DNA of 64,000 nucleotides. Origin: a virus. Positions 3,940 through 62,802 of this stretch are shown here, piece after piece. The stretch is taken from positions 1 through 64,000 of the IMG/VR virus record IMGVR_UViG_3300023181_000028; one strand, written 5' to 3'. The translations under genes were made by a program, and so were the position numbers. Within the stretch, counting starts at the first letter, position 1; the number at the start of each line of letters is the position of its first letter. Under the pieces are notes generated by a model. The model was not told where the DNA came from. It ran no database searches and was given only the letters and a program-made list of their open reading frames with translations.

Positions 3940-4509
3940 TTATTTTGCAATTTTCTTCTTAATCACTGAATTTATAGTTTCGGAGTAGCGCTTAGTGAAC
4001 AATTTAGCAAACGCGTCTATTACTTTAAAATCTGAATTAACAGCCTCCGTCCAATTTTTAGGTTTATCCCAAAGCTCTTTGTATTCCGCGCAAATAGATT
4101 TATAATTCGCCGCGCTTAAATATTCTGGGTGATAAGACAACATAGGATTGATTGTAAACACTTTCTTATCATAATTAGGTAGTAAGTATCCATTTTCAAT
4201 AAGATGCTTAAAATCCTCTCTAATTGATTTTACGTTCCCACTCAATTTTATACTAGGATTATACACAACATTTGCCGCCAAAACAGTTTCTTTAAAACTA
4301 ATTAATAAACGCGTGGAATATACAATCGTATTATCTGATTTAGATTGATATATAAGCCAGCTAAGCAAGGCAAATTCACTAGAAGGTAAATACATAGCGC
4401 AGTTAGTGAAATGCTTTGTAACCACCCTTGTTGTCTTTCCTCCGGTTAATTCCGGGAAATAAGGCAATGACTTAACCTGTGTAGATTCAATAGACTTAGT
4501 GTTAGCCAT
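3940..4509 (-). CDS. putative winged-helix DNA-binding protein (RepL-like)
   Basis: SEFALLSWL...KHLIENGYL...FTINP pattern typical of wHTH RepL-like proteins. Confidence 0.55.
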   Translation of the reverse strand: MANTKSIESTQVKSLPYFPELTGGKTTRVVTKHFTNCAMYLPSSEFALLSWLIYQSKSDNTIVYSTRLLISFKETVLAANVVYNPSIKLSGNVKSIREDFKHLIENGYLLPNYDKKVFTINPMLSYHPEYLSAANYKSICAEYKELWDKPKNWTEAVNSDFKVIDAFAKLFTKRYSETINSVIKKKIAK

Positions 4510-6523: not shown

Positions 6524-7252
6524 TTAAAATCTATATTTATTGCAGCTTACAGCCATTACATAACCATTATGATAGTAAGAGTTTGGAATATCTTCCAGCA
6601 ACACTTTTACCTGATTCATGTTAGACGTTTTGATTATTTCTTTTCTGCCGTTAACGCAGAGAATAGAATTACTTTTCTTTAATTCTTTGATTCTATTATG
6701 TGCGGAACCAACGCTGCACCCTAACATGGATGCTATTTTACTCATAGATATGCTCATTAAGTCTTTTTCACCAGGTAACTTGTCTACATCTATATTCTTT
6801 CTTTTAACTGTCCTCTGAGCAGCTTTATATGAATTTAGATTTTGTGGGGTATGAAGGTCAAGGCTTAACTGCTTGTATCTATTAAATTGATTTTGCTTAT
6901 TCTTGAGAACTAGCAATTGAAGATCTTTGAATATTTGTTTTATACTATCAGCTATCTCAAACTTAACTATCACCTTTTTCTTATTGTGGTCAAACTTATT
7001 CAGCTTAACGAATAATAAATTCTTGCCGTGCATTTTACACCACCCGCTATTCAGAAATGATTTAATGTACTTACGGACGGCAGAAAGGCTTAGTCCAGAT
7101 TTTTCAGCTAATGATTTTTGGGTGTAATTGAAAACACAGGAATTAGAATAAAAAGACTTTAAATACAAAAACGCTGATAAATCTTTTAATCTTCCGCTTT
7201 TAGCGATAGCAATGAGATTTATTTTATTAATGTCTAAAGACCGATTATTCAC
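6524..7252 (-). CDS. two-HTH DNA-binding protein (replication-initiator/regulator-like)
   Basis: YTQKSLAEKSGLSLSAVRKYIK and ISMSKIASMLGCSVGSAHNRIKEL; GTG start. Confidence 0.75.
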   Translation of the reverse strand: MNNRSLDINKINLIAIAKSGRLKDLSAFLYLKSFYSNSCVFNYTQKSLAEKSGLSLSAVRKYIKSFLNSGWCKMHGKNLLFVKLNKFDHNKKKVIVKFEIADSIKQIFKDLQLLVLKNKQNQFNRYKQLSLDLHTPQNLNSYKAAQRTVKRKNIDVDKLPGEKDLMSISMSKIASMLGCSVGSAHNRIKELKKSNSILCVNGRKEIIKTSNMNQVKVLLEDIPNSYYHNGYVMAVSCNKYRF

Positions 7253-7258
7253 TTTCTA

Positions 7259-7311
7259 TTACAATTTTTGTAAGGATTTGTGATTTTTTGATTCTATTAC
7301 AGATTTTGTAA
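7259..7311. promoter_or_regulatory. paired palindromes TTACA-N5-TGTAA (7259-7273, 7297-7311), 38 bp period, locus 1
   Basis: same geometry at three other loci. Confidence 0.85.
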
Positions 7312-11061: not shown

Positions 11062-12617
11062 AAGAACTCCGCGCATACCAATCCGAATGTATAAATACGG
11101 TTCAAAATGAACTAATTTCCGGCATTTCATCTCAATTGATCGTCATGAGTATGGGGCTAGGAAAGACTTTCACTGCCGTTAAGATGACAGAACAGCTTGG
11201 ATTTAAAAGTGTATTATGGGTAACGGATGATGAGCGCCTGCTTGAGCAATCTGCATTAGCGTTCGCTTATGATAAGTTTGAACCTGAATTAGTGGAGAAA
11301 ATAGCTAAGAACGGCCTGCTTAATTACATAAGATCCGGCGGAACGTTCAATGGGTATAAAATGGGGGTTATCAAAGCAGACTTGTTTAAGCCTGATGGCG
11401 ATGTAGTTTTTTGTTCCGCGCAAACATTATGGCGGAGATTAGATAAGTTAGATCCTTACAAATACGACTGTCTCATAATAGATGAATGCCACCTCTTCGG
11501 AGCCAATACATTTTTTAAAGGTATTTCACACTTCCACCCTAAACTGAGGCTAGGATTAACCGGAACTCCATTTAGGAAAGACGGCATGATGCTATCTGAT
11601 ATATTCCAAAAGATTGTATTTGAATACAATATGTTAGAGGGTATTAAATCAGGGTACTTGTGTGAACTAGATGCAATCAGGATTAAGACAAATTGCTCAT
11701 TGGACGGAGTGCATACGCTGGCAGGTGACTTTAACGAAAAAGAACTATCTGATGAATTGAACACTTTGGCGCGTAACAACTTAATCGCTCAGTCTTATAT
11801 TAAGTACTGTAAGGGTCGCCAAGCCATCGGATTTGGAATTGATATACAACATTGCATTGATCTTGCAGAAGCCTTTAGACAGCACGGAATTAGCGCAATA
11901 GCCATATCCAGCGACGAGGAAAGAACCGGAGATAAGAATATTGGAATTAAACAATATAGAGAAGGGATAATTGAGGTTATATTCAGTGTTAATCTATTAA
12001 GTAAAGGATTTGACCATCCCGATACCGGATGCACAATAGCGGCAGCCCCAACTAAATCAATAGTAAGATATTTACAAGGGCCAGGAGGAAGAGGAAGTCG
12101 ATTGAAGTCCGCGGAATACGTTTCTAAATTTGGACAAAATTGTATAATTTTAGACGTGGTGGATAATACCACTAAACACAACCTTATTAATGCTTGGGAA
12201 TTAGACAAACAAAAGCCAGTTGAAGAAAGAACTTTTATAAGTCAGGATAAGAAAGATAAATTACTAGCCGTTCGAAATGCTACAAAAATATCCCACGAAA
12301 GAAAAGAGGATGAAATTGTTAAACTTTTGCAGATACCTAGACTCAAACTATCTAAGTTCTACACAATGTCTGATGATGCCACGCCCGCTCAAATAGAAGC
12401 GATCAAAAAATTTGGATATACTGATGAAGTTCATTACACAAAGTTTATGATAACCGAGATATTTGCAGCGCAGCCAGTTACACCATCTCAATGGGGATGG
12501 CTAAAATATAAGGGATATGATGTGTCGGGTAAAGTGATAACGCGCGGAGAGTTTGAAGCGGCAAGAAGAGAAGTGGAAAGAAAAGAAGAAAAGAGAAACC
12601 TTAATAAGAAATTTTAG
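11058..12617 (+). CDS. SF2 DExH-box helicase
   Basis: LRAYQ, MGLGKT, DECH, TGT, GFDHP, Q..GGRGSR motifs. Confidence 0.92.
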   Translation: MKELRAYQSECINTVQNELISGISSQLIVMSMGLGKTFTAVKMTEQLGFKSVLWVTDDERLLEQSALAFAYDKFEPELVEKIAKNGLLNYIRSGGTFNGYKMGVIKADLFKPDGDVVFCSAQTLWRRLDKLDPYKYDCLIIDECHLFGANTFFKGISHFHPKLRLGLTGTPFRKDGMMLSDIFQKIVFEYNMLEGIKSGYLCELDAIRIKTNCSLDGVHTLAGDFNEKELSDELNTLARNNLIAQSYIKYCKGRQAIGFGIDIQHCIDLAEAFRQHGISAIAISSDEERTGDKNIGIKQYREGIIEVIFSVNLLSKGFDHPDTGCTIAAAPTKSIVRYLQGPGGRGSRLKSAEYVSKFGQNCIILDVVDNTTKHNLINAWELDKQKPVEERTFISQDKKDKLLAVRNATKISHERKEDEIVKLLQIPRLKLSKFYTMSDDATPAQIEAIKKFGYTDEVHYTKFMITEIFAAQPVTPSQWGWLKYKGYDVSGKVITRGEFEAARREVERKEEKRNLNKKF

Positions 12618-12629
12618 TAAAACCAATAT

Positions 12630-13214
12630 ATGAAAGAAATAAAAGGATCTATATCCTACACATTACAAATCTCTGATTCCGGCGAATGGACAGTTACATA
12701 CGGAACAGAAGGTCAATCAGAAGAGGATTCTGTGCATAATGACATAGCTTCTCTTGTGATTGCTCAGAATGTTATGGAGCAATGCGCCGCCACTATGAAA
12801 CTTAATAAAGAATCATTAAAGGGCAGAGATAAGAAATACATGACCCAAAAGCTAGATAAGGTGATTGATGGTAGGTTTGGATTAAAACTTATCGCGGATT
12901 ACCTGATTGATTGCTATGAAGGCTATATGGAGTTCTTATCTAAGAAAGCGTCGGACAAAGAAGCTAATCCTAAAGCAGAACAAGTTACAATGACTGAGGA
13001 AGAAATTAAAATGGCTAAAGAAACCCATGACAGGCTCACTAACGAATTAGTTAAAGGAGTGTTGGATAAATATCCAGATCACGTAAATTCATATAAAGAA
13101 GGGCAAACAGGACTGCTGGGGATGTTCGTTGGAGAGGCTATGAAGGCATCGAAAGGTAAAATAGATCCAAAATATCTAAATAACATTGTTAAAAATCAAT
13201 TAGATGGATTATAG
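12630..13214 (+). CDS. protein with C-terminal GatB/YqeY-like domain
   Basis: VLDKYPDHVNSYKEGQTGLLGMFVGEAMKASKGKIDPK resembles the GatB C-terminal tail. Confidence 0.8.
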   Translation: MKEIKGSISYTLQISDSGEWTVTYGTEGQSEEDSVHNDIASLVIAQNVMEQCAATMKLNKESLKGRDKKYMTQKLDKVIDGRFGLKLIADYLIDCYEGYMEFLSKKASDKEANPKAEQVTMTEEEIKMAKETHDRLTNELVKGVLDKYPDHVNSYKEGQTGLLGMFVGEAMKASKGKIDPKYLNNIVKNQLDGL

Positions 13215-13386
13215 TGAGTTTATAGGTGCGGCATTGGCGGAACCTCTAGGGGATGGAATGTGGAATGTATATGCTAATGGTTTTGTAAAGATTAGTGATT
13301 GTTCCGGCGACACAGAGTTTGAAGCCAAAGAAGACGCTTGGAGATACATACAAAGACTTAAAGATAAAATAGATGAAAAAGATTAA
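13204..13386 (+). CDS. hypothetical protein
   Basis: 60 aa, overlaps neighbours. Confidence 0.65.
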   Translation: MDYSEFIGAALAEPLGDGMWNVYANGFVKISDCSGDTEFEAKEDAWRYIQRLKDKIDEKD

Positions 13387-13729
13387 ATTAGAAGAGCAAT
13401 TCCAATTAGGAGATCAGGTGTATCTCTACACTAAAAACGATGAAGGTAAGCCTATTATTAAATCAGTGGCATCCTCAAATGTAAAGAAAGAGAAAGAAAA
13501 GAAGGCTTTTGTGCCACCCACCCTGGCGGATGTAATTGTATTCTTTAATAAGAATGGGTACGATAATGAACTTGCTAAAAAGTTTTTTAACGGCTACGAT
13601 GTAGCTGAATGGAAAGACAGCAATGGCAGACAAATACATAATTGGCAACAGAAAGCCCACCAAGTTTGGTTTAGAGATACTAACAAACTACCCGTTAAAG
13701 AGAAACAAGAGTCTAAATTCATGTTTTAA
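13373..13729 (+). CDS. replisome-organiser C-terminal-like protein (putative helicase loader/partner)
   Basis: FVPPTLADV...AKKFFNGY...WKD..G..I.NWQ motif, directly upstream of DnaB. Confidence 0.7.
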   Translation: MKKIKLEEQFQLGDQVYLYTKNDEGKPIIKSVASSNVKKEKEKKAFVPPTLADVIVFFNKNGYDNELAKKFFNGYDVAEWKDSNGRQIHNWQQKAHQVWFRDTNKLPVKEKQESKFMF

Positions 13730-13731
13730 CC

Positions 13732-15144
13732 ATGCAAGAAGCACATAGTCTGGATATGCAGACAAAACTATTGGGGGTGTACATGGGTAATCCCGATGCA
13801 TTCTCTCATGTAGAAAACTTATTCAAATCAAACATCTTCACCACAACTATCTATAAACACTGTTTTAAGATCATTACAGCGTATCATGCCAAGAATATAA
13901 AGTCTGATATGAATATTATCTTAAACGCTCTTATAAAGGCTGGAATAGATAAAAAAGAGGCTGCTATGTCAGTGTCTAAGTTAGATGTTTACACCCACCT
14001 ATCCGCCGGACAAATAGCTGAATATGTTACATCCCTATTTGAAGAAGCCCTTACAAATGATCTTGTTCCCTTTATCGAGAATGTTGCCTCCACTACAAAC
14101 CCACAGAATGTATTTGAGAAGATAGGGGAGTTGAAGGATAAGATTAATCGCGTGGAGTTGACGGTTAATAACGTTAGCAAGGAAGTGAGTATTAAGACTC
14201 AGTTTAAAGAGGCGGTTAACAGAATTAAGAATTTAAAGACGGGTAAAATAGAACAAGCTGGATTTAGCTGGGGTATACCCTCTTTAGACAAAAAAACTCT
14301 TGGAATAGTTCAGGGGATCAACATTGTCGCGGCATCAAAAGGCGGTGGAAAATCCTCAATTTTGATAAATATTATCGTGGAGAACGTTGTAAAAAAACAA
14401 CTTCCTATGTTATTTTTCTCTATGGAGATGACTGCAATTGAAGTGCTAACAAATGTGATCGCTAACGTGCGTAGGATTAATTCTAAAGCACTTAGAACCG
14501 GACAAGTTGACGAGAATGACTTAATTGATATTGAAGCCATAGAGGGCAGATTAAATGAATCTTTTGTCATTGACCCCACCGGCGGAATAACCCACCAATA
14601 TTTTAAAGCGAAAGCAAGGGCGTTTAGAAAGGCTAATAATATACCAGATAATGAAACTATATTAGTGGCACTAGATTATTTGGGACTTATGAAAAATACA
14701 CCGGACGAGGCCAAGATGACTAAGGAAGAGAAGATAGAGCAAATATGCACCGAATTAATGTGTAGCTGCAAGGATGAAAATATCGCTTTAGTTAAACTTG
14801 CTCAATTCGGAAGAGAACTAGACAGGCGCGGTAATGATAGCTACGCAGTTAAAAACGATTCGGATAAACTAAGAGCTTTACGTCCTAAAATGAGCGATCT
14901 TAAGGGTTCCTCTGCAATTGAAAGTAATGCGGTTACTATTCTTTTACTATACAGACCTAGTTATTATGGGATATTAGAGTCGGACGGGAAAGACTTTCGC
15001 GGACTTTGCGAGATAAACATAGCAAAAGGACGGTACGTGAATCCTGAGCCTGTATATGTGAAATTCAAAGGAGAATATTCTTTATTTCAGGATATTGAAG
15101 AGAGTGAATCGGCAATACAATCAACAGAAGAACCTCCCTTTTAA
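13732..15144 (+). CDS. dnaB: DnaB-like replicative helicase
   Basis: ASKGGGKS, FSMEM, LDYLGL, LAQFGR, PKMSDLKGSSAIE, IAKGR. Confidence 0.95.
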   Translation: MQEAHSLDMQTKLLGVYMGNPDAFSHVENLFKSNIFTTTIYKHCFKIITAYHAKNIKSDMNIILNALIKAGIDKKEAAMSVSKLDVYTHLSAGQIAEYVTSLFEEALTNDLVPFIENVASTTNPQNVFEKIGELKDKINRVELTVNNVSKEVSIKTQFKEAVNRIKNLKTGKIEQAGFSWGIPSLDKKTLGIVQGINIVAASKGGGKSSILINIIVENVVKKQLPMLFFSMEMTAIEVLTNVIANVRRINSKALRTGQVDENDLIDIEAIEGRLNESFVIDPTGGITHQYFKAKARAFRKANNIPDNETILVALDYLGLMKNTPDEAKMTKEEKIEQICTELMCSCKDENIALVKLAQFGRELDRRGNDSYAVKNDSDKLRALRPKMSDLKGSSAIESNAVTILLLYRPSYYGILESDGKDFRGLCEINIAKGRYVNPEPVYVKFKGEYSLFQDIEESESAIQSTEEPPF

Positions 15145-15160
15145 AATAATTGCAAAATAA

Positions 15161-15189
15161 TGCAACCTTATTCTTTTTATCACGTTTAA
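15161..15189 (+). promoter_or_regulatory. ECF-like promoter TGCAAC-N16-CGTTTAA
   Basis: motif copy, intergenic. Confidence 0.8.
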
Positions 15190-15207
15190 CTTATAAAATA
15201 ACCAACT

Positions 15208-15681
15208 ATGTTTAAAATATACAAACACAAACAAACCGGAAAAGCTATTAGGGCTATTCAAGTGACAAATGACTTCACTATAAACAAAGCATTCTCAGAA
15301 TTAGACCTTACAGGGCATAAGTTTAATATAGGTGACTATGTTATTGAGAATCCTAAGATGTCTCCCGGCAGAACCATATCTATTATGACTGCCGAGGAAT
15401 TTGAGGCTAATTATCAGGAAATGGATAGCAAAGAAGCCTCTGAATTATTAAGCGGCGGATGTTCACCTGTATTAACTTATAAAGTTGAGAATAGCAGACA
15501 GATTGCAGAGATCAGATATAACACTGAATCTAAAACTCTGGAAGTGGACTTTAAAACCGGAAAGACTTATGAGTACTACGAAGTGCCTAAGGATGTGTTT
15601 GAGGGTGTGAGACTAGCTGAGTCTGCTGGCAAGTTCTTTAATTCAAATATTAAATCAAACTTTCAATACAAACAAATCTAA
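15208..15681 (+). CDS. PGDYG-like domain fused to KTSC domain
   Basis: N-term IGDYVI...EEFEANY; C-term SRQIAEIRY...LEVDFKTGKTYEYYEVP...AESAGKFFNSNIK. Confidence 0.85.
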   Translation: MFKIYKHKQTGKAIRAIQVTNDFTINKAFSELDLTGHKFNIGDYVIENPKMSPGRTISIMTAEEFEANYQEMDSKEASELLSGGCSPVLTYKVENSRQIAEIRYNTESKTLEVDFKTGKTYEYYEVPKDVFEGVRLAESAGKFFNSNIKSNFQYKQI

Positions 15682-15692
15682 AACCATAAACT

Positions 15693-16508
15693 ATGTTCAA
15701 TTTATTTAAGAAACTTAACCCCGCTAAGACAGAAACTATCTCAACTCCAATTTCAGGAATCGAATCGGCAATACCTTCATATCCAAAAGATGTGATTCAG
15801 ATTCACCATGAATTTAATACTGCCGCCGACTCTCTTATTGTAGAGGCAAATGTTATTATTTCAGAAGCCGCAACTAAAGATGTTAAAAAAGTAAGCAGAT
15901 TAGAGGCTTTAGGATTCAAACAGGCTGGACAAGTGACAGAATTAAAGCCTTTGATTCAAAAAGCAGAATTAAGTAAAGAGCAATTAGAATTATTGGCTTA
16001 TTATCGCAGAGAATATCCATTCAATAAATTCATTACAGAAGATCAGGTTAAAAACATTTGCCATAAATGGAACTTGGTTTGCGGAGAAGTTAACAGATTT
16101 AAAGGATTTGTTCCTGAAAAGAACCTTAAAGAAATTGAGAATTTTGTTATAAAAAATAATGATTCGGACGTTTATTTATACGCCTTTGGATCGCAGTTTT
16201 ATACTGAATCCGAATGTATTGAATTAGGCTATTGGGAAAGAAATTTTGATGAATACACTTCTTATAAAAAAGACCCTCAAAACACAAAAAGTACCAGATT
16301 TCAAATAAAATCTTCTACTCTTCAAATTTGCGCTCCTGTAAAAGATATGGATATAAGAGGATTAGAACTTGTAGAAGGGTATAAACTTCAAAAGAAACAT
16401 ATACCTGATCCGGTAGTACTTCAACCTGTGAAAGGCGGTTATCTTATCCTTACGGCTTGGGGTGACGAGGCAAGTGATGAAAATGTTGTTAACTCTATAA
16501 ACAATTAA
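15693..16508 (+). CDS. conserved phage hypothetical protein
   Basis: C-terminal PDPVVLQPVKGGYLILTAWGDE motif. Confidence 0.8.
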   Translation: MFNLFKKLNPAKTETISTPISGIESAIPSYPKDVIQIHHEFNTAADSLIVEANVIISEAATKDVKKVSRLEALGFKQAGQVTELKPLIQKAELSKEQLELLAYYRREYPFNKFITEDQVKNICHKWNLVCGEVNRFKGFVPEKNLKEIENFVIKNNDSDVYLYAFGSQFYTESECIELGYWERNFDEYTSYKKDPQNTKSTRFQIKSSTLQICAPVKDMDIRGLELVEGYKLQKKHIPDPVVLQPVKGGYLILTAWGDEASDENVVNSINN

Positions 16509-16510
16509 TC

Positions 16511-17518
16511 ATGAACCAAGAATTAATAACATCTAATCCAAAGTTGGCAAAAGACCTTGCTATTGTCACTGAATTAAAAACTCAATTAGACGAAGCCGCA
16601 AGCCAATTAAGCCTCATTAAGGTGGTGGACACAGGTACACTATCAGTGGCACAACAAAACATCTCTAAAGCCACGCAATTAGTGAATTTTGTGGAAGAGA
16701 AACGTGTGATTATTAAGGAGCCTTACTTATCCGCCGGAAAACTTGTAGACAAAACTTGTAAAGACTTAGTGGAAGAACTTGTTAAGTCTATCGCAGGAGC
16801 CAAGAAACAGATATTAGAATGGGAAGCTGCCCGAAAAGCAGAAGAAGCCGCTAAACAAGCAGAGATTGATCGTGTTGCCGCCGAAGAGAAAGCTAAACTA
16901 CAAGCAGAAGCAGATCGTAAACAAGCCATTCAAGACTACATCACAGATGTAATGGTACCAAAGCTTATTAAAATGACTGAGCAATGCACAACTGTGGAAC
17001 TCTGCGAAAAGGCTTTGAATAACATCAATGCTAATTTCAAACCAAAAGAATATTTTGAACACCTGGCGGATCATGCTTATGATATCAAAGACAGATATGT
17101 TGAGATTATTAAGTCCAAAAAAACTCAATTAGAGAGCGCTGACACACTTTCTGACTCAGAGAAGGAATTAGCCAAGCAGAAGCAGGAAATGGCCGAGGAG
17201 AAGGCTAGAATGGCGGAGAGAGAAGCTAAAGTTAAAGCCGCTGAGGACAAGATCAAATTAGAGAACGAACAGAAGCAAAAAGATTTAGAAGCGGAAGAGG
17301 CTAAGAGATTAGCAGAACAAATGTCTTCCCTGAATAAGACTAAAGGCATTCGTTACAATTGGGGATTTGAATTAGCGGATATTAAGAAGGTTCCGGCGGA
17401 ATGGTTAACTATTGATGAAGCTAAAGTTAAATCCTATATCAAAGAGAATAAGGATAGCCTTAAAGAGGGAGTTGTCAACGGAGTTAAATTTATTAAAACA
17501 CCATCAGTGACAGCGTAA
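16511..17518 (+). CDS. long coiled-coil protein (Gp157/Gam-like recombination-module protein)
   Basis: coiled coil with C-terminal W.FE..D..KVP.EWL.IDE.KV...GVKF. Confidence 0.65.
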   Translation: MNQELITSNPKLAKDLAIVTELKTQLDEAASQLSLIKVVDTGTLSVAQQNISKATQLVNFVEEKRVIIKEPYLSAGKLVDKTCKDLVEELVKSIAGAKKQILEWEAARKAEEAAKQAEIDRVAAEEKAKLQAEADRKQAIQDYITDVMVPKLIKMTEQCTTVELCEKALNNINANFKPKEYFEHLADHAYDIKDRYVEIIKSKKTQLESADTLSDSEKELAKQKQEMAEEKARMAEREAKVKAAEDKIKLENEQKQKDLEAEEAKRLAEQMSSLNKTKGIRYNWGFELADIKKVPAEWLTIDEAKVKSYIKENKDSLKEGVVNGVKFIKTPSVTA

Positions 17519-22260: not shown

Positions 22261-22509
22261 ATGAGAAACAGGACTCCAAGAAAAACAAAAAAGCAATTAG
22301 GTAAAATGTTAATAATTTACGATAGAGCAGTGCTGCCGATTAACTTATCAATGTTAGACGTTCTAAATAGATTTAAAGACCACAAAGTTTTAGAGTGGGA
22401 CTCAAGTGCGGCTGGTAACGTTAGTTGCATGAATATAATGAGTAGGCCAGTAATAATGAATTATAGGAAAGGATTTCAAATAAAAAACAATTCCTTACAA
22501 AATCTGTAA
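22261..22509 (+). CDS. hypothetical protein
   Basis: 82 aa; last codons (LQNL*) are the TTACA palindrome. Confidence 0.6.
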   Translation: MRNRTPRKTKKQLGKMLIIYDRAVLPINLSMLDVLNRFKDHKVLEWDSSAAGNVSCMNIMSRPVIMNYRKGFQIKNNSLQNL

Positions 22510-28602: not shown

Positions 28603-29286
28603 TTAACATCCGCAACCACAGTCGCATAAAGATTTAGCCTTGTTTATAAATAAATTAGCTTTTACATAATCCTCATATTTCACTGCGGATTCAGCAATAG
28701 AAAGATAGGATTGTGATAAGATAGCCTTATTAGCTTCTTTACTATCGCATTCGCAATCAATCTCAACCTTATTGAATATCTCATCCATACAGCATTGAGT
28801 TGCAAGTTTTTGCAATATCATATCCGTAGTACTTAAATCGAACGCGGTGGGAGTTCCACTCACTGAGGTGCTACCCGTAATGTTATAAATAACACCATAA
28901 GCTCCGTCAACTAGCGAAGGAAGATTATAGACCTGAGAAGACCCATACGTATAGCTATTTAACAACATAAAGCCATTTAGAGGGAATGTTGTGGAGTTTA
29001 GCTGAGATAGTATAGTTTGAGCGCCAAGCCCGTTAAAATTGATTGTAGCGGCTGTAATAGTGCCATTAAGAATAGTAAAGGTATATACCGCAGAAACTTG
29101 TAATTGAGTGTAATTAACAGTTAAAACAAGACCTGTAACATCGTTTATTGCCACCCCATTAGGTGATCCATAACCAAAAGGCGCTGAAACAACATTGTAA
29201 GTCGGAGTGATATCAGTAATGTATAAAGTATCGAAAGCATTATTAAGTGCTAAGTCAACTTCTAAGTCTAATTGTGTTACTGGCAT
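28603..29286 (-). CDS. tail hub-like structural protein, paralogue A
   Basis: C-terminal CDCGCGC; similar to 29366-30070. Confidence 0.7.
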   Translation of the reverse strand: MPVTQLDLEVDLALNNAFDTLYITDITPTYNVVSAPFGYGSPNGVAINDVTGLVLTVNYTQLQVSAVYTFTILNGTITAATINFNGLGAQTILSQLNSTTFPLNGFMLLNSYTYGSSQVYNLPSLVDGAYGVIYNITGSTSVSGTPTAFDLSTTDMILQKLATQCCMDEIFNKVEIDCECDSKEANKAILSQSYLSIAESAVKYEDYVKANLFINKAKSLCDCGCGC

Positions 29287-41357: not shown

Positions 41358-41410
41358 TTACAGATTTTGTAAGGAAATGCAATGGTTGTAAATTATTACA
41401 ATAATTGTAA
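41358..41410. promoter_or_regulatory. paired TTACA-N5-TGTAA palindromes (41358-41372, 41396-41410), locus 3
   Basis: 38 bp period; ends 8 bp upstream of ECF-like -35. Confidence 0.85.
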
Positions 41411-51808: not shown

Positions 51809-52193
51809 TTATATTTGGATAAAGTTTATAAATCAAAACAAATATTGTAAATACAAATATAACCTTATCTACAATACCAAAACTGTATACATTAGCATAA
51901 GTTCTTTCCCACGCATCTGTCAAAATCAAATTACACGGAACCGTTAATATCGCTCCCACAAATCTATGTCCAAAGTAAGCACAAAGCAAACTACACACAC
52001 TAACAAATGCTGCGGTAATTAAAGATAATATCCTTTTTTCCAACCTATAACCATCTTGCCAGCAATAAATATCATCACACATAGTAGGGTATTTCATTCT
52101 CACGTATGTGTCTTTATACATAAACCAATAAGTTGCAAGAATTACCAAGCAACTTATTAGCGTAATGTACATTATTTTAATCCTCTTACTCAC
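51780..52193 (-). CDS. multi-TM membrane protein
   Basis: about four hydrophobic segments; GTG start. Confidence 0.7.
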   Translation of the reverse strand: MSKRIKIMYITLISCLVILATYWFMYKDTYVRMKYPTMCDDIYCWQDGYRLEKRILSLITAAFVSVCSLLCAYFGHRFVGAILTVPCNLILTDAWERTYANVYSFGIVDKVIFVFTIFVLIYKLYPNISDSSKEARA

Positions 52194-54232: not shown

Positions 54233-54556
54233 TTATGAGTACGCTAGAATTGAACCTGACGCTAAAGTAATAGCTGTTATAGTATAACCATTAGGAACTA
54301 TTAAAAGATCCACTGTGTTTAATGTAAGGCCGGAAATATTAAACTCAGTTAAAAAATTAACAGTCGTTCCGCTTGCATTAGTTCCCGACAGAAGAGATAT
54401 CACGGTAGCCTCTCTTGGCTGTATAGACGACACGCTTAACCCCGTTCTTGCGTTAGTATCAGCGTAAACCTTAGTTCCGCCATTTGCGCCCATTTTGTTT
54501 AAATTCGGATTGTTAAGTATCGCGTGTAAAAGCGCACTAAAATATTTATATTCCAT
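54233..54556 (-). CDS. small structural protein
   Basis: ends TAITLASGSILAY; -7 element at 54572-54579. Confidence 0.7.
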   Translation of the reverse strand: MEYKYFSALLHAILNNPNLNKMGANGGTKVYADTNARTGLSVSSIQPREATVISLLSGTNASGTTVNFLTEFNISGLTLNTVDLLIVPNGYTITAITLASGSILAYS

Positions 54557-56819: not shown

Positions 56820-57641
56820 TTAACTCCTCTCAACTTCTGAATCGACTGCCTGAGCCGCCGGATAATTACTTGTTACTAATAACATAATCCTAGAAGCTGC
56901 TTTACATATCTCATCGTGAACCTTCTCGGGTAAATCCACTGGCGATGTATTACTAGCCAAGATAACCTGACCAGAAGTTAAATCTGCCGTACCTGCCGTA
57001 AATTGATCCCCTATTTGATAAGTGTTAGTATTCTCTACACTTACTTCCACCGCAATATAATCATCCCCCGGAGTCAATACGCCCGTACCTTCGTCTATTA
57101 ATTGATCTTCTGAGCCTACACTAAAGTCCACAGGAGTTCTTAGGTACGTTAGTTTGGCAGTTGTGAATGTTCCGCCAACACCCCTATGAATTGTAAGCCC
57201 TGTAGCATCTTCATTATAATACGTTTTAAGATTGGTTGGATGCTTAAAGCTATCTTTTAATAACGGCCCAAGTTCATTGAATGTAATGGGTCTACTGTAA
57301 TCCCAGAACGCGTCTATAAGCGTGTCTAATTGAACAAAAGCATAATAATCAGGCGGAAAGTTAATATGGCTTGGAGTGGACGAATAATACCTATTAGCCC
57401 TAACTGTACCGTTAGTTATAGAGGGAGTTGCCACTGCTATCAAAGTGAATAGATCGTCGCGAATTTGTTGAATCCATTGGAAGTTCTCAGGATTACGCTG
57501 CTTCTCATCTCCGACCTTTTCATCTATATAATTATGTATAGCGTCATTCACAGCCTTATTGTAATCTGAGAAGAAGAAGCGGGCGTTACGTGACACATCT
57601 AAATAAAAATCTATTCTGGCAAGGGTCTGTAGTGCATTCAT
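56820..57641 (-). CDS. head-tail adaptor/ring protein (crAss-type)
   Basis: Q.IRDDL..L, FP.DY, LTYLR.P, DLPE.VH.EI. Confidence 0.8.
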   Translation of the reverse strand: MNALQTLARIDFYLDVSRNARFFFSDYNKAVNDAIHNYIDEKVGDEKQRNPENFQWIQQIRDDLFTLIAVATPSITNGTVRANRYYSSTPSHINFPPDYYAFVQLDTLIDAFWDYSRPITFNELGPLLKDSFKHPTNLKTYYNEDATGLTIHRGVGGTFTTAKLTYLRTPVDFSVGSEDQLIDEGTGVLTPGDDYIAVEVSVENTNTYQIGDQFTAGTADLTSGQVILASNTSPVDLPEKVHDEICKAASRIMLLVTSNYPAAQAVDSEVERS

Positions 57642-57658
57642 CTGTAAGTTGTTTCCAC

Positions 57659-57829
57659 AAATATACTAAATAAAAAAGCCGCCCATTAAAAGCGGCTCCA
57701 AATGATCTTTTGCCATTTAAACATTCCTTACACGTCTGCAAGGCGATAATCGTAATCCCGATTCTCTCTGATGCGCTGGTCAAGTGGAAGCGTAGAGTTG
57801 CTGCGGTAAATATACTAAATAAAAAAGCC
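57659..57829. repeat. 22-bp direct repeat AAATATACTAAATAAAAAAGCC (57659-57680, 57808-57829)
   Basis: on minus strand each copy is a terminator tail fused to a TATATTT(G/A) promoter element. Confidence 0.9.
57672..57802 (-). ncRNA. candidate ~130-nt structured small RNA (cassette 2)
   Basis: -7 element 57807-57814; terminator 57672-57696; internal hairpins. Confidence 0.65.
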
Positions 57830-57964
57830 TCCGGTTAAAGAGGCTTAGTAAAGTGTTCAGTCTTCACTTCGTAAACGTTTTATAGGTTTTATTTTAATCT
57901 CGGCGAACGTTAACCACTTTTAACCGAAAAGGATTGAGTTTTAAATCTATTACAAATATTGTAA
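57821..57964 (-). ncRNA. candidate ~145-nt small RNA (cassette 1)
   Basis: -7 element 57970-57977; terminator 57821-57846; no ATG inside. Confidence 0.6.
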
Positions 57965-58002
57965 TGAAACAAATATAATTAAAATCCTTACAAATTCTGT
58001 AA
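57950..58002. promoter_or_regulatory. paired TTACA-N5-TGTAA palindromes (57950-57964, 57988-58002), locus 4
   Basis: 38 bp period; brackets the -7 element of sRNA cassette 1. Confidence 0.85.
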
Positions 58003-58422
58003 TACTTTCTCGTCAGATAGTTTCTTAAACTTAGCATACAGCACCTCTATATCAGACTTATTCTTCTCTCCCCTCTTGTATGCTAGAACGTTTTTCACAT
58101 CCGAGATAGAAAGGCACGGTTTGTTTTCTAATACATATTGTTCAGCTAAGGGACGGGCGGAATAGAACTTCGGAATAGGATAATAAGTATTCGCTGTGGC
58201 TTGCGTAATTCTCCAATCTAATCCTACACACCACACTTCACTACCAGACTTAACCTCAACCCCATCAATAGATATAAATACCACCTCTATTTTAGGAATC
58301 TCCACCCAATCTGTGGCACCTTCAATAATAAGCTTAGGAATAGGATTTCCATTCACTTCGTAATTATTCTCGTCTATCTCCGTGGCTAATAAACTTAACT
58401 TCTTGTTTTCGTATTGTTTCAT
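57988..58422 (-). CDS. hypothetical protein
   Basis: 144 aa; ends LQNL* inside the palindrome. Confidence 0.75.
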   Translation of the reverse strand: MKQYENKKLSLLATEIDENNYEVNGNPIPKLIIEGATDWVEIPKIEVVFISIDGVEVKSGSEVWCVGLDWRITQATANTYYPIPKFYSARPLAEQYVLENKPCLSISDVKNVLAYKRGEKNKSDIEVLYAKFKKLSDEKVLQNL

Positions 58423-58424
58423 GG

Positions 58425-58856
58425 TTATTTTATAATTAATAATTCTGGATTTTGGTAAATATTACCAGCAACAAAATCAATAAGTCCGTAATCATAAAGA
58501 TCGTATTTTTGTTCATCACCTATTTCAGTAACAACCCACTTGCCATCTTCATTGTCCCACGAAACAACACTTTTAATGGTATAATGAATAGCTTCCGGCC
58601 CGTAACCCTCTGAGTCACTGCCGCACAAAATATCCCCTTCATAAATTTGGACATCATCATTAATTTCCATTCCGGTGTATTGCATTAAAAACAATTCATC
58701 CCTATCTATTCCAATGTAACCAGTCTCTTTTGGCGGTATCATTTTACCATTAACATCTTCATAAATTATCACCCTTAACGGCGTTACGCCAACACCGTAA
58801 TACATTTCTTTTTCGTCGGCATCCCACGCTCTGAATTTAATTTCTCTTGTTTTCAT
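58425..58856 (-). CDS. YopX-family protein
   Basis: REIKFRAWD...LMQYTG...IYEGDIL...GNIYQNPELL. Confidence 0.92.
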   Translation of the reverse strand: MKTREIKFRAWDADEKEMYYGVGVTPLRVIIYEDVNGKMIPPKETGYIGIDRDELFLMQYTGMEINDDVQIYEGDILCGSDSEGYGPEAIHYTIKSVVSWDNEDGKWVVTEIGDEQKYDLYDYGLIDFVAGNIYQNPELLIIK

Positions 58857-58862
58857 ACCCTC

Positions 58863-58891
58863 TTAAACGCAAACAATCTCACAAGGTTGCA
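58863..58891 (-). promoter_or_regulatory. ECF-like promoter TGCAAC-N16-CGTTTAA
   Basis: directly after a terminator; ATG 6 nt after -10. Confidence 0.8.
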
Positions 58892-58892
58892 T

Positions 58893-58918
58893 AAAAAAAG
58901 GGAAACTTTCACCTCCCT
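58893..58918 (-). terminator. intrinsic terminator
   Basis: AGGGA stem plus T-run. Confidence 0.65.
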
Positions 58919-58940
58919 CTTAAATAATCAAATATAAGTA

Positions 58941-60050
58941 TTATCCCTCAAATTCAGGATTCACTTCTCGCACCTTTTCTTTTAAGCGTTCTAAGTCCTT
59001 AATCATGTGTATGCCCTTAATATTTAAACGCTTGCCCTCAGTCACCCAGATTAACCTCTCTTCCGCATCCTCAACTATATTAACAGCAGCAGCTTTCTTT
59101 AAAGCCTCTTCCTTAGCCATTAATTCAGCTTCTAAACGCGCAATCCTAGCATCCTTATCATCACCAACAAACGCAGTGTGCTTAACCGGAGTTCTTGTCA
59201 TAGACTTATCAGTGTCAGCGTCAACCTTCTTAGTCAACAAATCAATAGTCTGACAAACCTGTGGATACTCTTTTAAATAATCCACTGCCATAACCTCATT
59301 TGCTCCCAAAGGCTGTCCATTGTAATTCCATCCATTAACAACATCCATAGCGATAACACCCGCAGCAACACCTCTTTTAAAGATAGTTAATTCCTTACGT
59401 GTTGGACTATCATAAATAGCCATAAACGCTTTAGAATCATTCTCTGCCCTTTTAATCACCTCTGCTTGTAATGTTACATCTGAGTTAGCTTCCGGCGGAA
59501 TACCCAAATTCCTAGCCATATCATGTAAAGCCTCTCCAAATAACGCCTCAGCAATATCAATAGCCTTACGTTTCTGAACCCTTCCAGATAAAAATACCTG
59601 AGCTTCTCTCTCTTCATCTTTCACCTTATACAAAGGTTTACCCCTCAAATTAGGACTTCCTTCCACGAACAAACTGTTTTTAATCACAGCCCATTTTCTT
59701 GCCTGATCTGCATCTGCTAAATCAAACACTTCATTCTCATCTAGAATAATCTTTTGGAATTTAATTTTTTTAGTTTCAGGGTCTATTCCGATTGGAATCC
59801 CCCAAACAACTCCCATTTTCCTGTCAATAACAATCTCAAAGAACATTTTAGTTCTATGTCTGTCACCACTTCTCATTGGAGTTAATATGATCTTACCCGT
59901 CCTAGAGCAAAGATCTGGATTGTCTAAGTTTGCAATCCTTGTCTCATTACCTGCGCCATCTTTATATAGCTTGTAATGTACACCTTCTTGATACAGGTCA
60001 TCCCCTGCCGCTGTTTTGTTACCTGATGTGAAAAAATTATTTATTTGCAT
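58941..60050 (-). CDS. conserved crAss-like protein downstream of major capsid gene
   Basis: 369 aa; synteny with crAss capsid module. Confidence 0.7.
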   Translation of the reverse strand: MQINNFFTSGNKTAAGDDLYQEGVHYKLYKDGAGNETRIANLDNPDLCSRTGKIILTPMRSGDRHRTKMFFEIVIDRKMGVVWGIPIGIDPETKKIKFQKIILDENEVFDLADADQARKWAVIKNSLFVEGSPNLRGKPLYKVKDEEREAQVFLSGRVQKRKAIDIAEALFGEALHDMARNLGIPPEANSDVTLQAEVIKRAENDSKAFMAIYDSPTRKELTIFKRGVAAGVIAMDVVNGWNYNGQPLGANEVMAVDYLKEYPQVCQTIDLLTKKVDADTDKSMTRTPVKHTAFVGDDKDARIARLEAELMAKEEALKKAAAVNIVEDAEERLIWVTEGKRLNIKGIHMIKDLERLKEKVREVNPEFEG

Positions 60051-60113: not shown

Positions 60114-61607
60114 TTAAGATTTATAGATAATACCGCACTCTTGAGTGTTGTAAATAACCATTAAATCTTCTTTTAACATTGCGTATTTCATTACGTCTTC
60201 CTCTGAAATCATTGTTTCATTGGCACCGGTCATACCGTTAAACTTAGCTGTTACACTTGCACGGTTTAATCCGTTTGCTTCTTTAGCAAGGATTTCCATG
60301 TTCATGTTAGAACCAGAACCTAAATTCATAATGAATAAGGTAGAGCTTAACAATAGTTTTCCGTCAGCACCTCTCTCAGGGAACGCAGCTTCGTCATCAA
60401 ACAACGGGTGTTTAACAAGGATCATTGTGTTACCATTGATGTTGAATTTACCGAAGTTGTATCCGGCATCCACGATTGCACCACCAGCTTGTCCATTTTG
60501 AGTTACATTAGTAACGATTTGGATGTTTTGATTACCAAGTAAGTTAATCAGTTTCTTTTGACCATTTGCATAGCCATCAGTACCGGTAATACCTACCCAT
60601 GTGAATCCTGACACCTTATCGCCTTTTTTCTCAAGTTGACCCATCATGTCAGCGATATCGTCTTCTGTCCACTCTCCGTTTAAGCCTGAACCGTATGCTA
60701 CGTTACCGCCAGCAACTTGCTCTTCCCAGCCGTCACCTTGAACGATCTCAAGACCTGTTTCAGTATCAATTAAGTTTGAACTTGCACGGATAGTACCATC
60801 AGCATTTTTCATACTTGATACACCAAACAACTTGTTACGCTCGTCTTCCATTACGAAAGTAGCTTGCGCTTGCGCTAATTCTTGATACATCCAACCTTTA
60901 GAGAAAGCTCCACCTTCACCTTCGTAGTTATACCAAAGTACATTTGAAGCAGCTCCACCGGTGATACCAACAGTTTTACGTTGAATAGTCATGTGGTTAA
61001 CAAACTTACTAGGCGCAGCCGAACGACCGTAACCACGAAGTGATTTCTCTCCATATGAAGTGTAAACTCCAAAGCAGGTTTTAGTTCCTTGTTGTGGCGC
61101 TACGTGAGTTGCATAGCTAAACAAATCACCAGATGGAGATTGGAAGCTATATAAGTAACCCGCAGAAGGGGAACCTGTAGGGAAAGCCATTACACGAGCG
61201 ATAAAACGACCTGTGTAGAAAGCAACGTTCATTCCCGGTACTAAGTGCTTATCGCGCATTAACAACTGGAAAGAACCGTCAGGCTGAGTAGCACCAACTT
61301 GTTTAATGATCTCAGATGCTTTCTCAATACGACCCATAACGTCAAATTGATAAGCGTTTGCTCCGATACCTTTACCTTTAGTTGTTACTTGAGGAATTTT
61401 AGTACGCTCAGGGTTAACGATACCATAAGGTGTTACCGCGCCGGATACTAAGATTGTAGTTAAAGCTCTACGATTCGCATACTCTAACATGTTTCGGATT
61501 GCAGGCTTATTGGCCTGATTTTTCATAAGGTCATTGTTAGTAACACAAGTGTCTTCCGAAAATACACCTTGATTAATACTAATTCTACCTGCGTGTGATG
61601 ATGGCAT
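60114..61607 (-). CDS. major capsid protein (crAss-like HK97 fold)
   Basis: 497 aa; YGEKS..G, NHMTIQRK...ITG, GDGW.EQ, TG..G, HPLFDD; follows portal and scaffold. Confidence 0.88.
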   Translation of the reverse strand: MPSSHAGRISINQGVFSEDTCVTNNDLMKNQANKPAIRNMLEYANRRALTTILVSGAVTPYGIVNPERTKIPQVTTKGKGIGANAYQFDVMGRIEKASEIIKQVGATQPDGSFQLLMRDKHLVPGMNVAFYTGRFIARVMAFPTGSPSAGYLYSFQSPSGDLFSYATHVAPQQGTKTCFGVYTSYGEKSLRGYGRSAAPSKFVNHMTIQRKTVGITGGAASNVLWYNYEGEGGAFSKGWMYQELAQAQATFVMEDERNKLFGVSSMKNADGTIRASSNLIDTETGLEIVQGDGWEEQVAGGNVAYGSGLNGEWTEDDIADMMGQLEKKGDKVSGFTWVGITGTDGYANGQKKLINLLGNQNIQIVTNVTQNGQAGGAIVDAGYNFGKFNINGNTMILVKHPLFDDEAAFPERGADGKLLLSSTLFIMNLGSGSNMNMEILAKEANGLNRASVTAKFNGMTGANETMISEEDVMKYAMLKEDLMVIYNTQECGIIYKS

Positions 61608-61632: not shown

Positions 61633-62802
61633 TTAATTGCCAAATTCTTTGTCTAATGCTGTCCAATTATCAGTTTCTGTGTTTGTTGGTTGTTTTGATC
61701 CACCTCCTGCGGTTTTCACCGTAGGGATGTTTAAAAGTTTATTAGTGTGATCCGCTTTCGCTTTCTCAGAAACCTTGTTCTTGATATGCGCGACAGCTTT
61801 TGCCTCTAACTCCCTTTTCACTATATACTCCGCTCTACTGCTTGCACTCGACAATTCCTTATCATACACGCCATTGGTGTATTTAGTGATAAGTGCATCC
61901 ATGACTTTTTTCGGTATCTTCACTCCCGCAATCTCTTGGATCTTACCAAGCTCATTGATAGTTTCGGTACGTTCTAATGCCTTTTTTTCATCGGCTGCCT
62001 TTTGTTTTTGTGCTGTGTATTTCTGGATTATATTAGTATGCTCTAAGGCCATAGCCTCTTTTTGATTATTTAGTTCAACGCGAATCTTAGCCGCGCTATG
62101 GTCAATCTTTCCGCTCTCAATAAGGTCTTCAATCTCCTTATCAATCATTTCATTAGTCCAATTAGGAATAGTGGCTAATTCAGCTCTCACTAACTCCACA
62201 TCGTCTAATTTAAGATAACCTTCAATTTCTTTAGTGGGTTCTAATAGTAAATGATCTGGAACTCCAAGTTCTTTCATTTCTAAAGCAGCCGCCACTTTAG
62301 GATCAAGATTAGCGAAATAAGTTTCTTTGCTTACCTGCGCTTGCTTCTCAGCTTCTGCTTTAGTGATATAAACCTCTTTAAAGGCTTCCGCAGTGTCTTC
62401 CTTAATGTCCGCGCCTAATTTCTGAGCAATGGCTTTAAATGAGTTCTCTGGATATACAATGGGAGCATCTGACTCTTCATCTAATGTTAATTCATCAGCA
62501 GTAGCCGCCAATTTAGCAGCCTCAATTTCTTCTTTTGTAGATGTTTCAGGTAAGTTTAAAGCCTTAGCTTCTTCTGCCAAAGCAGCTTTATTGGTTTCCT
62601 CTAATGCTAAAGCATCAGCAACGGCTTTTTCTGTTTCGGCTGTTTTCTCGGCAACCTGCTCAGGAGTTTCATCAACATCCTTAGTAATAACTTCTTCTTG
62701 TTTCTCTTCCTGTTTTGGTGTAGCATCCCCAAATTCTTGAGATGAGGTCAATGCGTCCCAATTAGCTTCAACCGTCTCGGTCGATTTATTTGTTTCTGAC
62801 AT
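61633..62802 (-). CDS. scaffold-like acidic protein
   Basis: acidic helical protein between portal and MCP; -7 element at 62829-62836. Confidence 0.75.
   Translation of the reverse strand: MSETNKSTETVEANWDALTSSQEFGDATPKQEEKQEEVITKDVDETPEQVAEKTAETEKAVADALALEETNKAALAEEAKALNLPETSTKEEIEAAKLAATADELTLDEESDAPIVYPENSFKAIAQKLGADIKEDTAEAFKEVYITKAEAEKQAQVSKETYFANLDPKVAAALEMKELGVPDHLLLEPTKEIEGYLKLDDVELVRAELATIPNWTNEMIDKEIEDLIESGKIDHSAAKIRVELNNQKEAMALEHTNIIQKYTAQKQKAADEKKALERTETINELGKIQEIAGVKIPKKVMDALITKYTNGVYDKELSSASSRAEYIVKRELEAKAVAHIKNKVSEKAKADHTNKLLNIPTVKTAGGGSKQPTNTETDNWTALDKEFGN

Follow-up and report, generated by a model that had tools for sequence, protein, structure and literature searches.

Duplication of a predicted terminator–promoter junction beside a putative moron in an uncultured crAss-like phage

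Background

The PR'–6S RNA–tR' arrangement of phage lambda places a late promoter and a short terminated transcript upstream of the late genes, with antitermination by Q. Type-I 3'UTR small RNAs (sRNAs), for example DapZ and MicL, have their promoter at the end of a coding sequence and a terminator in common with the mRNA. The prophage sRNAs AsxR and AgvB are encoded at moron sites of lambdoid prophages, where their genes lie between a moron coding sequence and the next conserved open reading frame (ORF) (Tree et al. 2014, PMC4104026). A moron is extra DNA with its own promoter and terminator, located between genes that are adjacent in related phages (Juhala et al. 2000; PMC3594210). In the T4-type phages RB49 and phi1, the PeSL (promoter-early stem-loop) cassettes are repeated terminator/promoter composites that flank accessory genes and mediate shuffling, and that are proposed to keep early transcription from spilling over into late virion genes (Arbiol et al. 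2010, PMC2839356).

Here we describe a locus of an uncultured crAss-like phage with a PeSL-like anatomy. As in the PeSL system, composites of a stem-loop terminator and a host-type promoter are repeated between genes, and they flank accessory or ORFan genes in a region that varies between relatives. The functions that we propose below, stopping accessory transcription from reaching virion genes and offering recombination points for cassettes, are also those of PeSL. The likeness is an analogy of design, as the junction found here has no sequence homology to PeSL. Its promoter is of the TAnnTTTG type and has no -35/-10 elements, whereas PeSL combines sigma-70 -35/-10 elements with a polyG/polyC stem, and its stem-loop always lies upstream, so placed that the T-tail of the predicted terminator doubles as the upstream AT-rich tract of the promoter. 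There are two to three related copies here compared with about 50, and one of the cassettes has no ORF. Mini-circles and activity belong to PeSL; the terminator and promoter of the present junction are predicted from motifs and folding.

Results

The window analysed here is a stretch of 64,000 nt of viral DNA that corresponds to positions 1–64,000 of the 80,011-bp IMG/VR record IMGVR_UViG_3300023181_000028, which is rated complete. The phage is crAss-like, as the 497-aa protein encoded at 60114–61607 on the minus strand matches both the Pfam family Crass_capsid (2.3e-19) and the PHROG major head protein. The only similarity of this major capsid protein (MCP) to GenBank phages was 25% identity to Flavobacterium phage FpV4. 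The order of genes on the minus strand is MCP, a 369-aa gene of the head module (p369, 58941–60050), a YopX-domain gene (58425–58856; PF09643, 4e-19), a 144-aa gene (p144, 57988–58422, with its stop codon TAA at 57988–57990), a gap of 346 nt (57642–57987), a 273-aa gene (p273, 56820–57641, with its ATG at 57641) and a 535-aa gene (p535). In GenBank phages, neither the region nor p273 had a blastn or tblastn match, single-protein scans found no close relatives carrying p273, p144 or the YopX gene, and a tRNA/tmRNA scan was negative.

The gene downstream of the gap had been called an adaptor gene in the first-pass annotation, a name that the profile of the 273-aa family does not favour. The profile weakly matches ring protein 4/5 of crAss001 (gp34, 7qoj_E, E = 0.012), which makes p273 putatively ring-protein-like rather than an adaptor and would place the gap at the boundary between the head and the tail barrel.

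The gap has no credible ORF and no ATG-initiated ORF above 16 aa. Read on the minus strand, it consists of P1, unit 1, T1, P2, unit 2, T2 and P3, followed by p273, where T1 and T2 are predicted intrinsic terminators, each fused through T6-ATTTAG to a promoter -7 element of the Bacteroidota type. In Bacteroidota, TAnnTTTG serves the primary sigma factor as its -7 element; promoters of Flavobacterium johnsoniae hardly vary at T-12, A-11, T-8, T-7, T-6 and G-5, and they show AT-rich tracts at -18 and -28 more clearly than a -33 element (PMC6847099). P1 has the full consensus -7 element TATATTTG (57970–57977, minus strand, as are all elements of the gap) located 10 nt past the p144 stop, with a predicted +1 near 57965. 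The body of unit 1 (57847–57965) is AT-rich, has no ATG and no ORF longer than 10 aa, and the ATG-free stretch between P1 and T1 amounts to about 120–145 nt. T1 (57821–57846), the first terminator past p144, is formed by the hairpin AAGCCTC-loop-GGAGGCTT (57846–57825, dG -10.5 kcal/mol) and a T6 tail. It is followed by ATTTAG and P2, TATATTTA (57807–57820 in all, P2 at 57814–57807), in which the near-invariant G-5 is replaced by A. The body of unit 2 (57700–57806) comprises 107 nt of unique sequence with a coding-like GC content of about 44% and no credible ORF. T2 (57672–57699), with the hairpin GGAGCCGC..GGGCGGCTTT (57699–57675, 3' arm GGGCGGC, dG -13.9 kcal/mol) and T6, adjoins ATTTAG, P3 with the element TATATTTG (57665–57658) and the leader GGAAACAACT, which together span 57642–57671. 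P3 is the conserved predicted promoter of p273; it ends 16 nt before the ATG, and its predicted +1 near 57653 would leave a leader of 12 nt. The T1 and T2 hairpins both scored as terminator-like.

The two junctions form a direct repeat of 44 nt with 82% identity and a spacing of 149 (57647–57690 and 57796–57839), within which 22 nt are exactly duplicated. In a local alignment of T1/P2 with T2/P3, 39 nt including both stem arms align with one gap and a score of 51, compared to 15 ± 2 (maximum 28) for shuffled flanks. The stems of T1 and T2 differ by a compensatory change from T-A to G-C, and both hairpins stay intact; judged by this alignment, T2 is a paralogue of T1. Outside the repeat, the similarity of the two cargoes to one another and to the 5' end of p273 is at or below that of shuffled controls. 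Descent of unit 2 by divergence from unit 1 or from the 5' end of p273 was rejected, with alignment scores below the shuffle mean. The minus-strand sequence thus bears out the first-pass description of a promoter-like element, an ORF-free stretch and a terminator, occurring twice with a duplicated junction, and the repeat search and alignment agree with its exact 22-nt duplicate carrying differing cargo. The middle copy does not have the same promoter, as had been stated: P2 ends in A, not in G.

The conservation of the junction was assessed in eight relatives, five viral contigs and three metagenome contigs, which were found with the MCP and with an alignment of p273 and are 53–63% and 31–38% identical to the phage in these two proteins, respectively. 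All eight have a single junction between the p369-like gene and the p273 homologue. Its order is the stop codon of the p369-like gene, a GC hairpin, a T-run, TA(T/A)(A/C)TT(T/C)G, 4–16 nt and the ATG of the p273 homologue, and the T-run adjoins TATCTTTG, TATATTTG or TAACTTCG. The YopX gene, p144, unit 1 and unit 2 occur in none of the eight, and the relative L007 has a 90-aa ORF at the junction site instead. With a single junction and different or no cargo, these relatives agree with the earlier suggestion that this is a site of cassette gain. The presence of a single junction in eight relatives without the insert indicates that the junction is an ancestral punctuation between head and tail genes, expanded in the present phage at a moron insertion site. 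The absence of the units from the relatives is itself weak evidence, since no close relative with the same insert was among those retrieved.

In L007, the homologues of p273 and p535, which are adjacent in the window, lie apart, separated by about 4.8 kb (11979–16715) with six ORFs, one of them of 680 aa. This interval is a second insertion hotspot, one gene downstream.

Contigs of two leaf-litter DNA runs were also inspected; no RNA run was among the sequencing runs listed as containing the phage sequence. None of the contigs joins across the junction copies; in the second run the contigs are short, and 57579–57947 is uncovered apart from 36 nt at T2. The YopX gene and p144 are nearly unchanged in the second run, and p273 is roughly 92% identical. 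Neither a recombinant joint nor an empty-site variant of the phage was seen among the contigs of the two runs.

Genome-wide, TAHHTTTG occurs within 40 nt upstream of gene starts nine times in the sense orientation compared with two in the antisense control. Together with the conservation of the junction, this enrichment indicates an ancestral mark, composed of a terminator and a late promoter, before the ring gene. The variant TAHHTTTA is not enriched before genes (9 versus 12 in the control). Seven of the 12 exact copies of TATATTTG fall in non-coding DNA, which constitutes 7.4% of the genome (binomial P = 7e-6, uncorrected for the AT-richness of the spacers). Because P2 has A at G-5, a position nearly invariant in F. 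johnsoniae promoters, we regard it as a weakened predicted promoter. Three late genes (upstream regions of 28603–29286, 54233–54556 and 61633–62802, minus strand) are preceded by an A/T-run and then GTAC(A/T)TTTA, possibly another late-promoter variant with a terminal A. Should GTAC(A/T)TTTA be functional, P2 may be less crippled than assumed.

Fusion of terminator and promoter is common in this genome, where six of 11 strict terminator hairpins lead directly into a promoter motif. The 19-mer T6-ATTTAG-TATATTT was found in 35 viral contigs, and in about 13 it immediately follows a GC hairpin and is itself followed by G, a short leader and an ATG. In the complete 66.7-kb phage L017 (IMGVR_UViG_3300030329_003597), 28 nt at 836–863 are identical to T2/P3 (GGCGGC, T6, ATTTAG, TATATTTG, TG) and lie between two structural-looking genes. 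Neither the crAss capsid nor a p273 homologue was detected in L017, and the match reflects either convergence on the host consensus or horizontal spread of the junction. In unrelated phages, the same junction of 19–28 nt is found ahead of ordinary protein genes, and by its distribution it appears to be a general punctuation of the phage, not an sRNA-specific module.

A related third copy of the junction is located at 65.2 kb of the full record. There, a gap of 163 nt before a 741-aa gene (65110–65272, minus strand) repeats the layout of 57642–57987. The stop codon is followed by TATATTTG inside the palindrome ATTGCA..TGCAAT and, about 65 nt on, by the terminator GACTGTT..AACAGTC with TTTTTTATTTTAG, then by TACTTTTG and the leader box GGAAACAACT; the box TTTG(N)GGAAACAACT is common to this site and P3. 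A further full TATATTTG lies at 58929–58936 (minus strand), 4 nt past the p369 stop and 10 nt before the terminator T0, and would give an RNA of about 40 nt if active. The recurrence of a stop codon, TATATTTG, an ORF-free stretch and a terminator after p369 and ahead of the 741-aa gene gives a hint that the layout is designed and not accidental.

The YopX gene and p144 (57988–58856) are missing from all eight relatives. They are preceded by T0, a terminator hairpin past p369 (58897–58920, minus strand) whose T-run passes directly into ATGCAACCTT, the predicted promoter of the YopX moron, and by the ECF-like promoter motif TGCAACCTT-N13-CGTTTAA (58860–58896, minus strand). T0, this motif, the two genes and T1 thus lie between p369 and p273, which are adjacent in the relatives, and to judge by this arrangement the YopX gene and p144 are a textbook moron, fully in keeping with the definition (Juhala et al. 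2000; PMC3594210). The locus differs from described morons in that unit 2 carries no gene and in that the genome is of a virulent-type crAss-like phage, not a lambdoid prophage. The ECF-like motif in the form TGCAACCTT-N13-CGT(A/T)(A/T)A has about 15 sites in the genome, mostly before early or middle genes and opposite-strand inserts, and a search of the genome for a sigma region 2 domain was negative. Examples are at 3944(-), 8713(+), 15156(+), 36262(+), 41414(+), 49855(+), 58896(-) and 62852(+), and some sites precede inserts within the structural region. A candidate ECF-type promoter past the palindromes described below (CAATCCTT-N13-GGTTAAC) was rejected as degenerate and without the AAC core.

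The first promoter had been noted to be bracketed by a pair of palindromes. The pair is real (57950–57964 and 57988–58002) and is one of five. Its TTACA-N5-TGTAA palindromes, spaced 38 bp from start to start, overlap the p144 stop codon on one side and cover the predicted +1 of P1 on the other. The motif with N5–N7 spacers has 13 matches in the genome compared with 0.7 expected; 11 have the N5 spacer, and 10 of these form the five pairs, all exactly 38 bp apart and of common polarity. The pairs are located at 7259–7311, 41358–41410 and 57950–58002 of the window and at 74433–74485 and 77742–77794 of the full record, with a single copy at 22495. All pairs lie in regulatory or ORF-free regions, and the motif is missing from the fragments of five relatives. 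By its regular spacing, the set looks like the operators of one phage regulator. A candidate binder is the 242-aa protein encoded with a GTG start at 6524–7252 on the minus strand, 7 nt past the pair 7259–7311, which has two winged-helix domains (HTH_24, 4.8e-10, two stretches) and also weak matches to RepL and replication initiators; it could bind the palindrome pairs and regulate its own gene, or it could be a replication initiator. The region of P1 has a paralogue of 46 nt at 51817–51862 (82% identity, E = 4e-5). The full-consensus -7 element, the surrounding operator pair and this paralogue make P1 look like a real, regulated promoter. As P1 is both of full consensus and flanked by a pair of this genome-wide operator set, short RNAs are probably made from the locus. 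There is no terminator between the p144 stop and T1, and unit 1 would therefore be at least the 3'UTR of the YopX–p144 transcript, whatever P1 does. The first-pass reading of unit 1 as a promoter–sRNA–terminator unit is qualified by this second role.

Every test for a functional RNA in the two units was negative. A search of the window against Rfam gave no match at gathering thresholds, and under permissive settings the best sub-threshold matches reached 24–25 bits, compared to thresholds of 55–81, with a best E of 0.09, and were driven by the terminators. With terminators and palindrome removed, folding z-scores against dinucleotide shuffles were +0.45 for unit 2 and -0.11 for unit 1; the whole-unit values of -0.8 and -2.2 are due to the terminators and the palindrome. 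The GC-richer hairpins ascribed to unit 2 are therefore no better than those of shuffles. The units have no further copy in the genome and none in the relatives, and scanning viral and metagenome contigs for exact words of the unit 2 core gave zero matches. Target prediction over 127 phage start regions gave duplexes no better than those of shuffles. In unit 2, an open frame of 28 codons begins in the junction and meets a stop 30 nt short of T2; another open frame has 82 codons. The 82-aa frame was rejected as a gene remnant: among 1.84 billion representatives it gave only spurious, summed matches to Ig repeats across the regulatory part, and a tblastx comparison of unit 2 with the fetched loci and the rest of the genome was blank. 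The possibility that the units encode peptides, raised in the first-pass annotation as an alternative to RNA, gains nothing from this frame or from the short ATG ORFs. For the units as trans-acting sRNAs, we found neither conservation or covariation nor structure or targets beyond chance.

Discussion

These results lead us to propose, with moderate confidence, that the gap is an expanded, PeSL-like copy of a terminator–promoter punctuation mark at a moron hotspot. In the ancestral state, there would be one GC hairpin, with a T-tail that doubles as the AT-rich upstream stretch of a host promoter of the sigma-A(Bfr) type (TAnnTTTG). This mark would separate the capsid genes (MCP, p369) from the tail-ring gene p273 and restart transcription a few bases before p273. 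In the lineage of the phage, accessory DNA may then have been taken up in the form of the YopX–p144 moron, which has an ECF-like promoter of its own, and duplication of the entire terminator/promoter module may have yielded T1/P2 and T2/P3. Beyond the observed duplication, the conserved single junction and the absence of the insert in relatives, we infer a recombinational origin of the copies, activity of their promoters and terminators, and a role in insulation. Transcripts of the head operon would end at T0; those started at the moron promoter, or at P1 under the control of its operators, would cross unit 1 and end at T1; leakage through T1 would be halted by T2; and the ring/tail operon would restart at P3. 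T0, T1 and T2 would in this way shield the ring/tail operon against both the head operon and the differently timed promoter of the moron. Unit 1 would be a 3'UTR, a short terminated transcript from P1, or both, and unit 2 an ORF-free spacer between the junction copies, in effect an empty cassette with a weakened promoter whose cargo was lost or never coded. The short RNAs, of about 145 nt and perhaps about 131 nt, are probably by-products of this arrangement.

It is possible, if rather unlikely in our opinion, that the units are real sRNA genes whose products act in trans on host or phage RNAs or serve as decoys. Unit 1 would then be a type-I 3'UTR sRNA made from the operator-controlled P1 and ending at the terminator common with the p144 mRNA, and unit 2 would be transcribed from P2. 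P1 is well suited to such a model by its full TAHHTTTG consensus, its location between two operator palindromes and its paralogue elsewhere, and exact TATATTTG is enriched in non-coding DNA. Each unit ends in a good predicted terminator and lacks an ATG ORF above 16 aa, unit 2 has a coding-like GC content within an AT-rich spacer, and the same layout recurs after p369 and at 65110–65272. The location of the units between a moron coding sequence and the next conserved phage ORF is that of AsxR and AgvB (PMC4104026). The position of P1 at the end of p144, with T1 in common with the p144 mRNA, is that expected for RNAs of the DapZ and MicL type. However, these four sRNAs have been detected experimentally, are conserved in families, bind Hfq and have known targets, whereas the present units are known only as predictions from DNA, and no conservation, structure signal or target was found for them. 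The Rfam scores far below gathering thresholds, the shuffle-like folding of the bodies, the absence of the units from eight relatives and from the exact-word scans, and the lack of excess complementarity to phage start regions all count against the model. So do the missing G-5 of P2, with TAHHTTTA not enriched before genes, and the occurrence of the junction before ordinary protein genes in other phages. On most of the same grounds, the modular array of functional sRNAs envisaged at first pass is not supported. Alternatively, unit 2, and perhaps unit 1, might be the remains of decayed or deleted accessory genes without a role even as insulators. The coding-like GC content of unit 2, its open frames of 28 and 82 codons, the degenerate P2 and the proven insertion hotspot are in line with such debris. 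However, chance is enough to explain frames of such length being open, no real homologue of the 82-aa frame was found and tblastx was blank, and both terminators are intact with a compensatory stem change; we consider pure debris improbable.

A termination checkpoint of the lambda PR'–6S–tR' type seems more improbable still. It would make P1 a regulated late promoter and T1 and T2 attenuators, with read-through only in the presence of a phage factor that modifies RNA polymerase, thereby turning on the ring/tail operon and passing the terminators of the late region. The layout of a late promoter and a short terminated transcript is indeed similar. A promoter, a short ORF-free leader and a terminator precede two late blocks (here and at 65110–65272, before the 741-aa gene), the late strand has many intergenic terminators, and P1 is predicted to be operator-controlled. 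However, searches of the complete 80-kb genome with PF06530 and PF03589 for Q-type proteins and with PF02357 for NusG/UpxY-type proteins found nothing, while control genomes were matched. A copy of the promoter directly past each terminator makes read-through unnecessary, the relatives have no leader before p273, and no antiterminator pairing is evident.

The by-product view of the short RNAs, which is part of the expanded-punctuation reading, also meets some resistance from the data. P1 looks purpose-built and regulated, and its only product before T1 would be the 145-nt RNA; T1 and T2 both keep intact stems. A speculative reading, which we regard as doubtful, is that full-consensus TATATTTG elements are set deliberately past the stops of late genes, and that the resulting short ORF-free RNAs represent an undescribed form of late-gene control or host interference. 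The sites concerned are TATATTTG after p369, p144 and the 673-aa gene at 65 kb, together with TATATTTA at P2. Each would launch only a short ORF-free RNA to the next terminator, and at least one would be gated by an operator pair, possibly bound by the protein encoded at 6524–7252. Such promoters could serve as an RNA polymerase sink, as a checkpoint, or as a source of decoy RNAs.

Conclusions

The anatomy described here is of a known kind, that of moron- and PeSL-type punctuation; what is new is its occurrence in a crAss-like Bacteroidota phage with a -7-type promoter. Transcription signals have been poorly mapped in Bacteroidota phages, crAss-like ones included, and the locus provides a clear, comparatively supported example, conserved in nine phages, of a terminator T-tail that runs into a -7 promoter of host type. 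It is exactly at this mark between head and tail genes that accessory genes enter, and the mark itself has been duplicated, which extends the PeSL and moron logic of modular shuffling to another order of phages and another type of promoter. The predicted terminator and promoter could be usable parts. Should the short RNAs turn out to have a function, they would count among the earliest small RNAs described in this group of phages.
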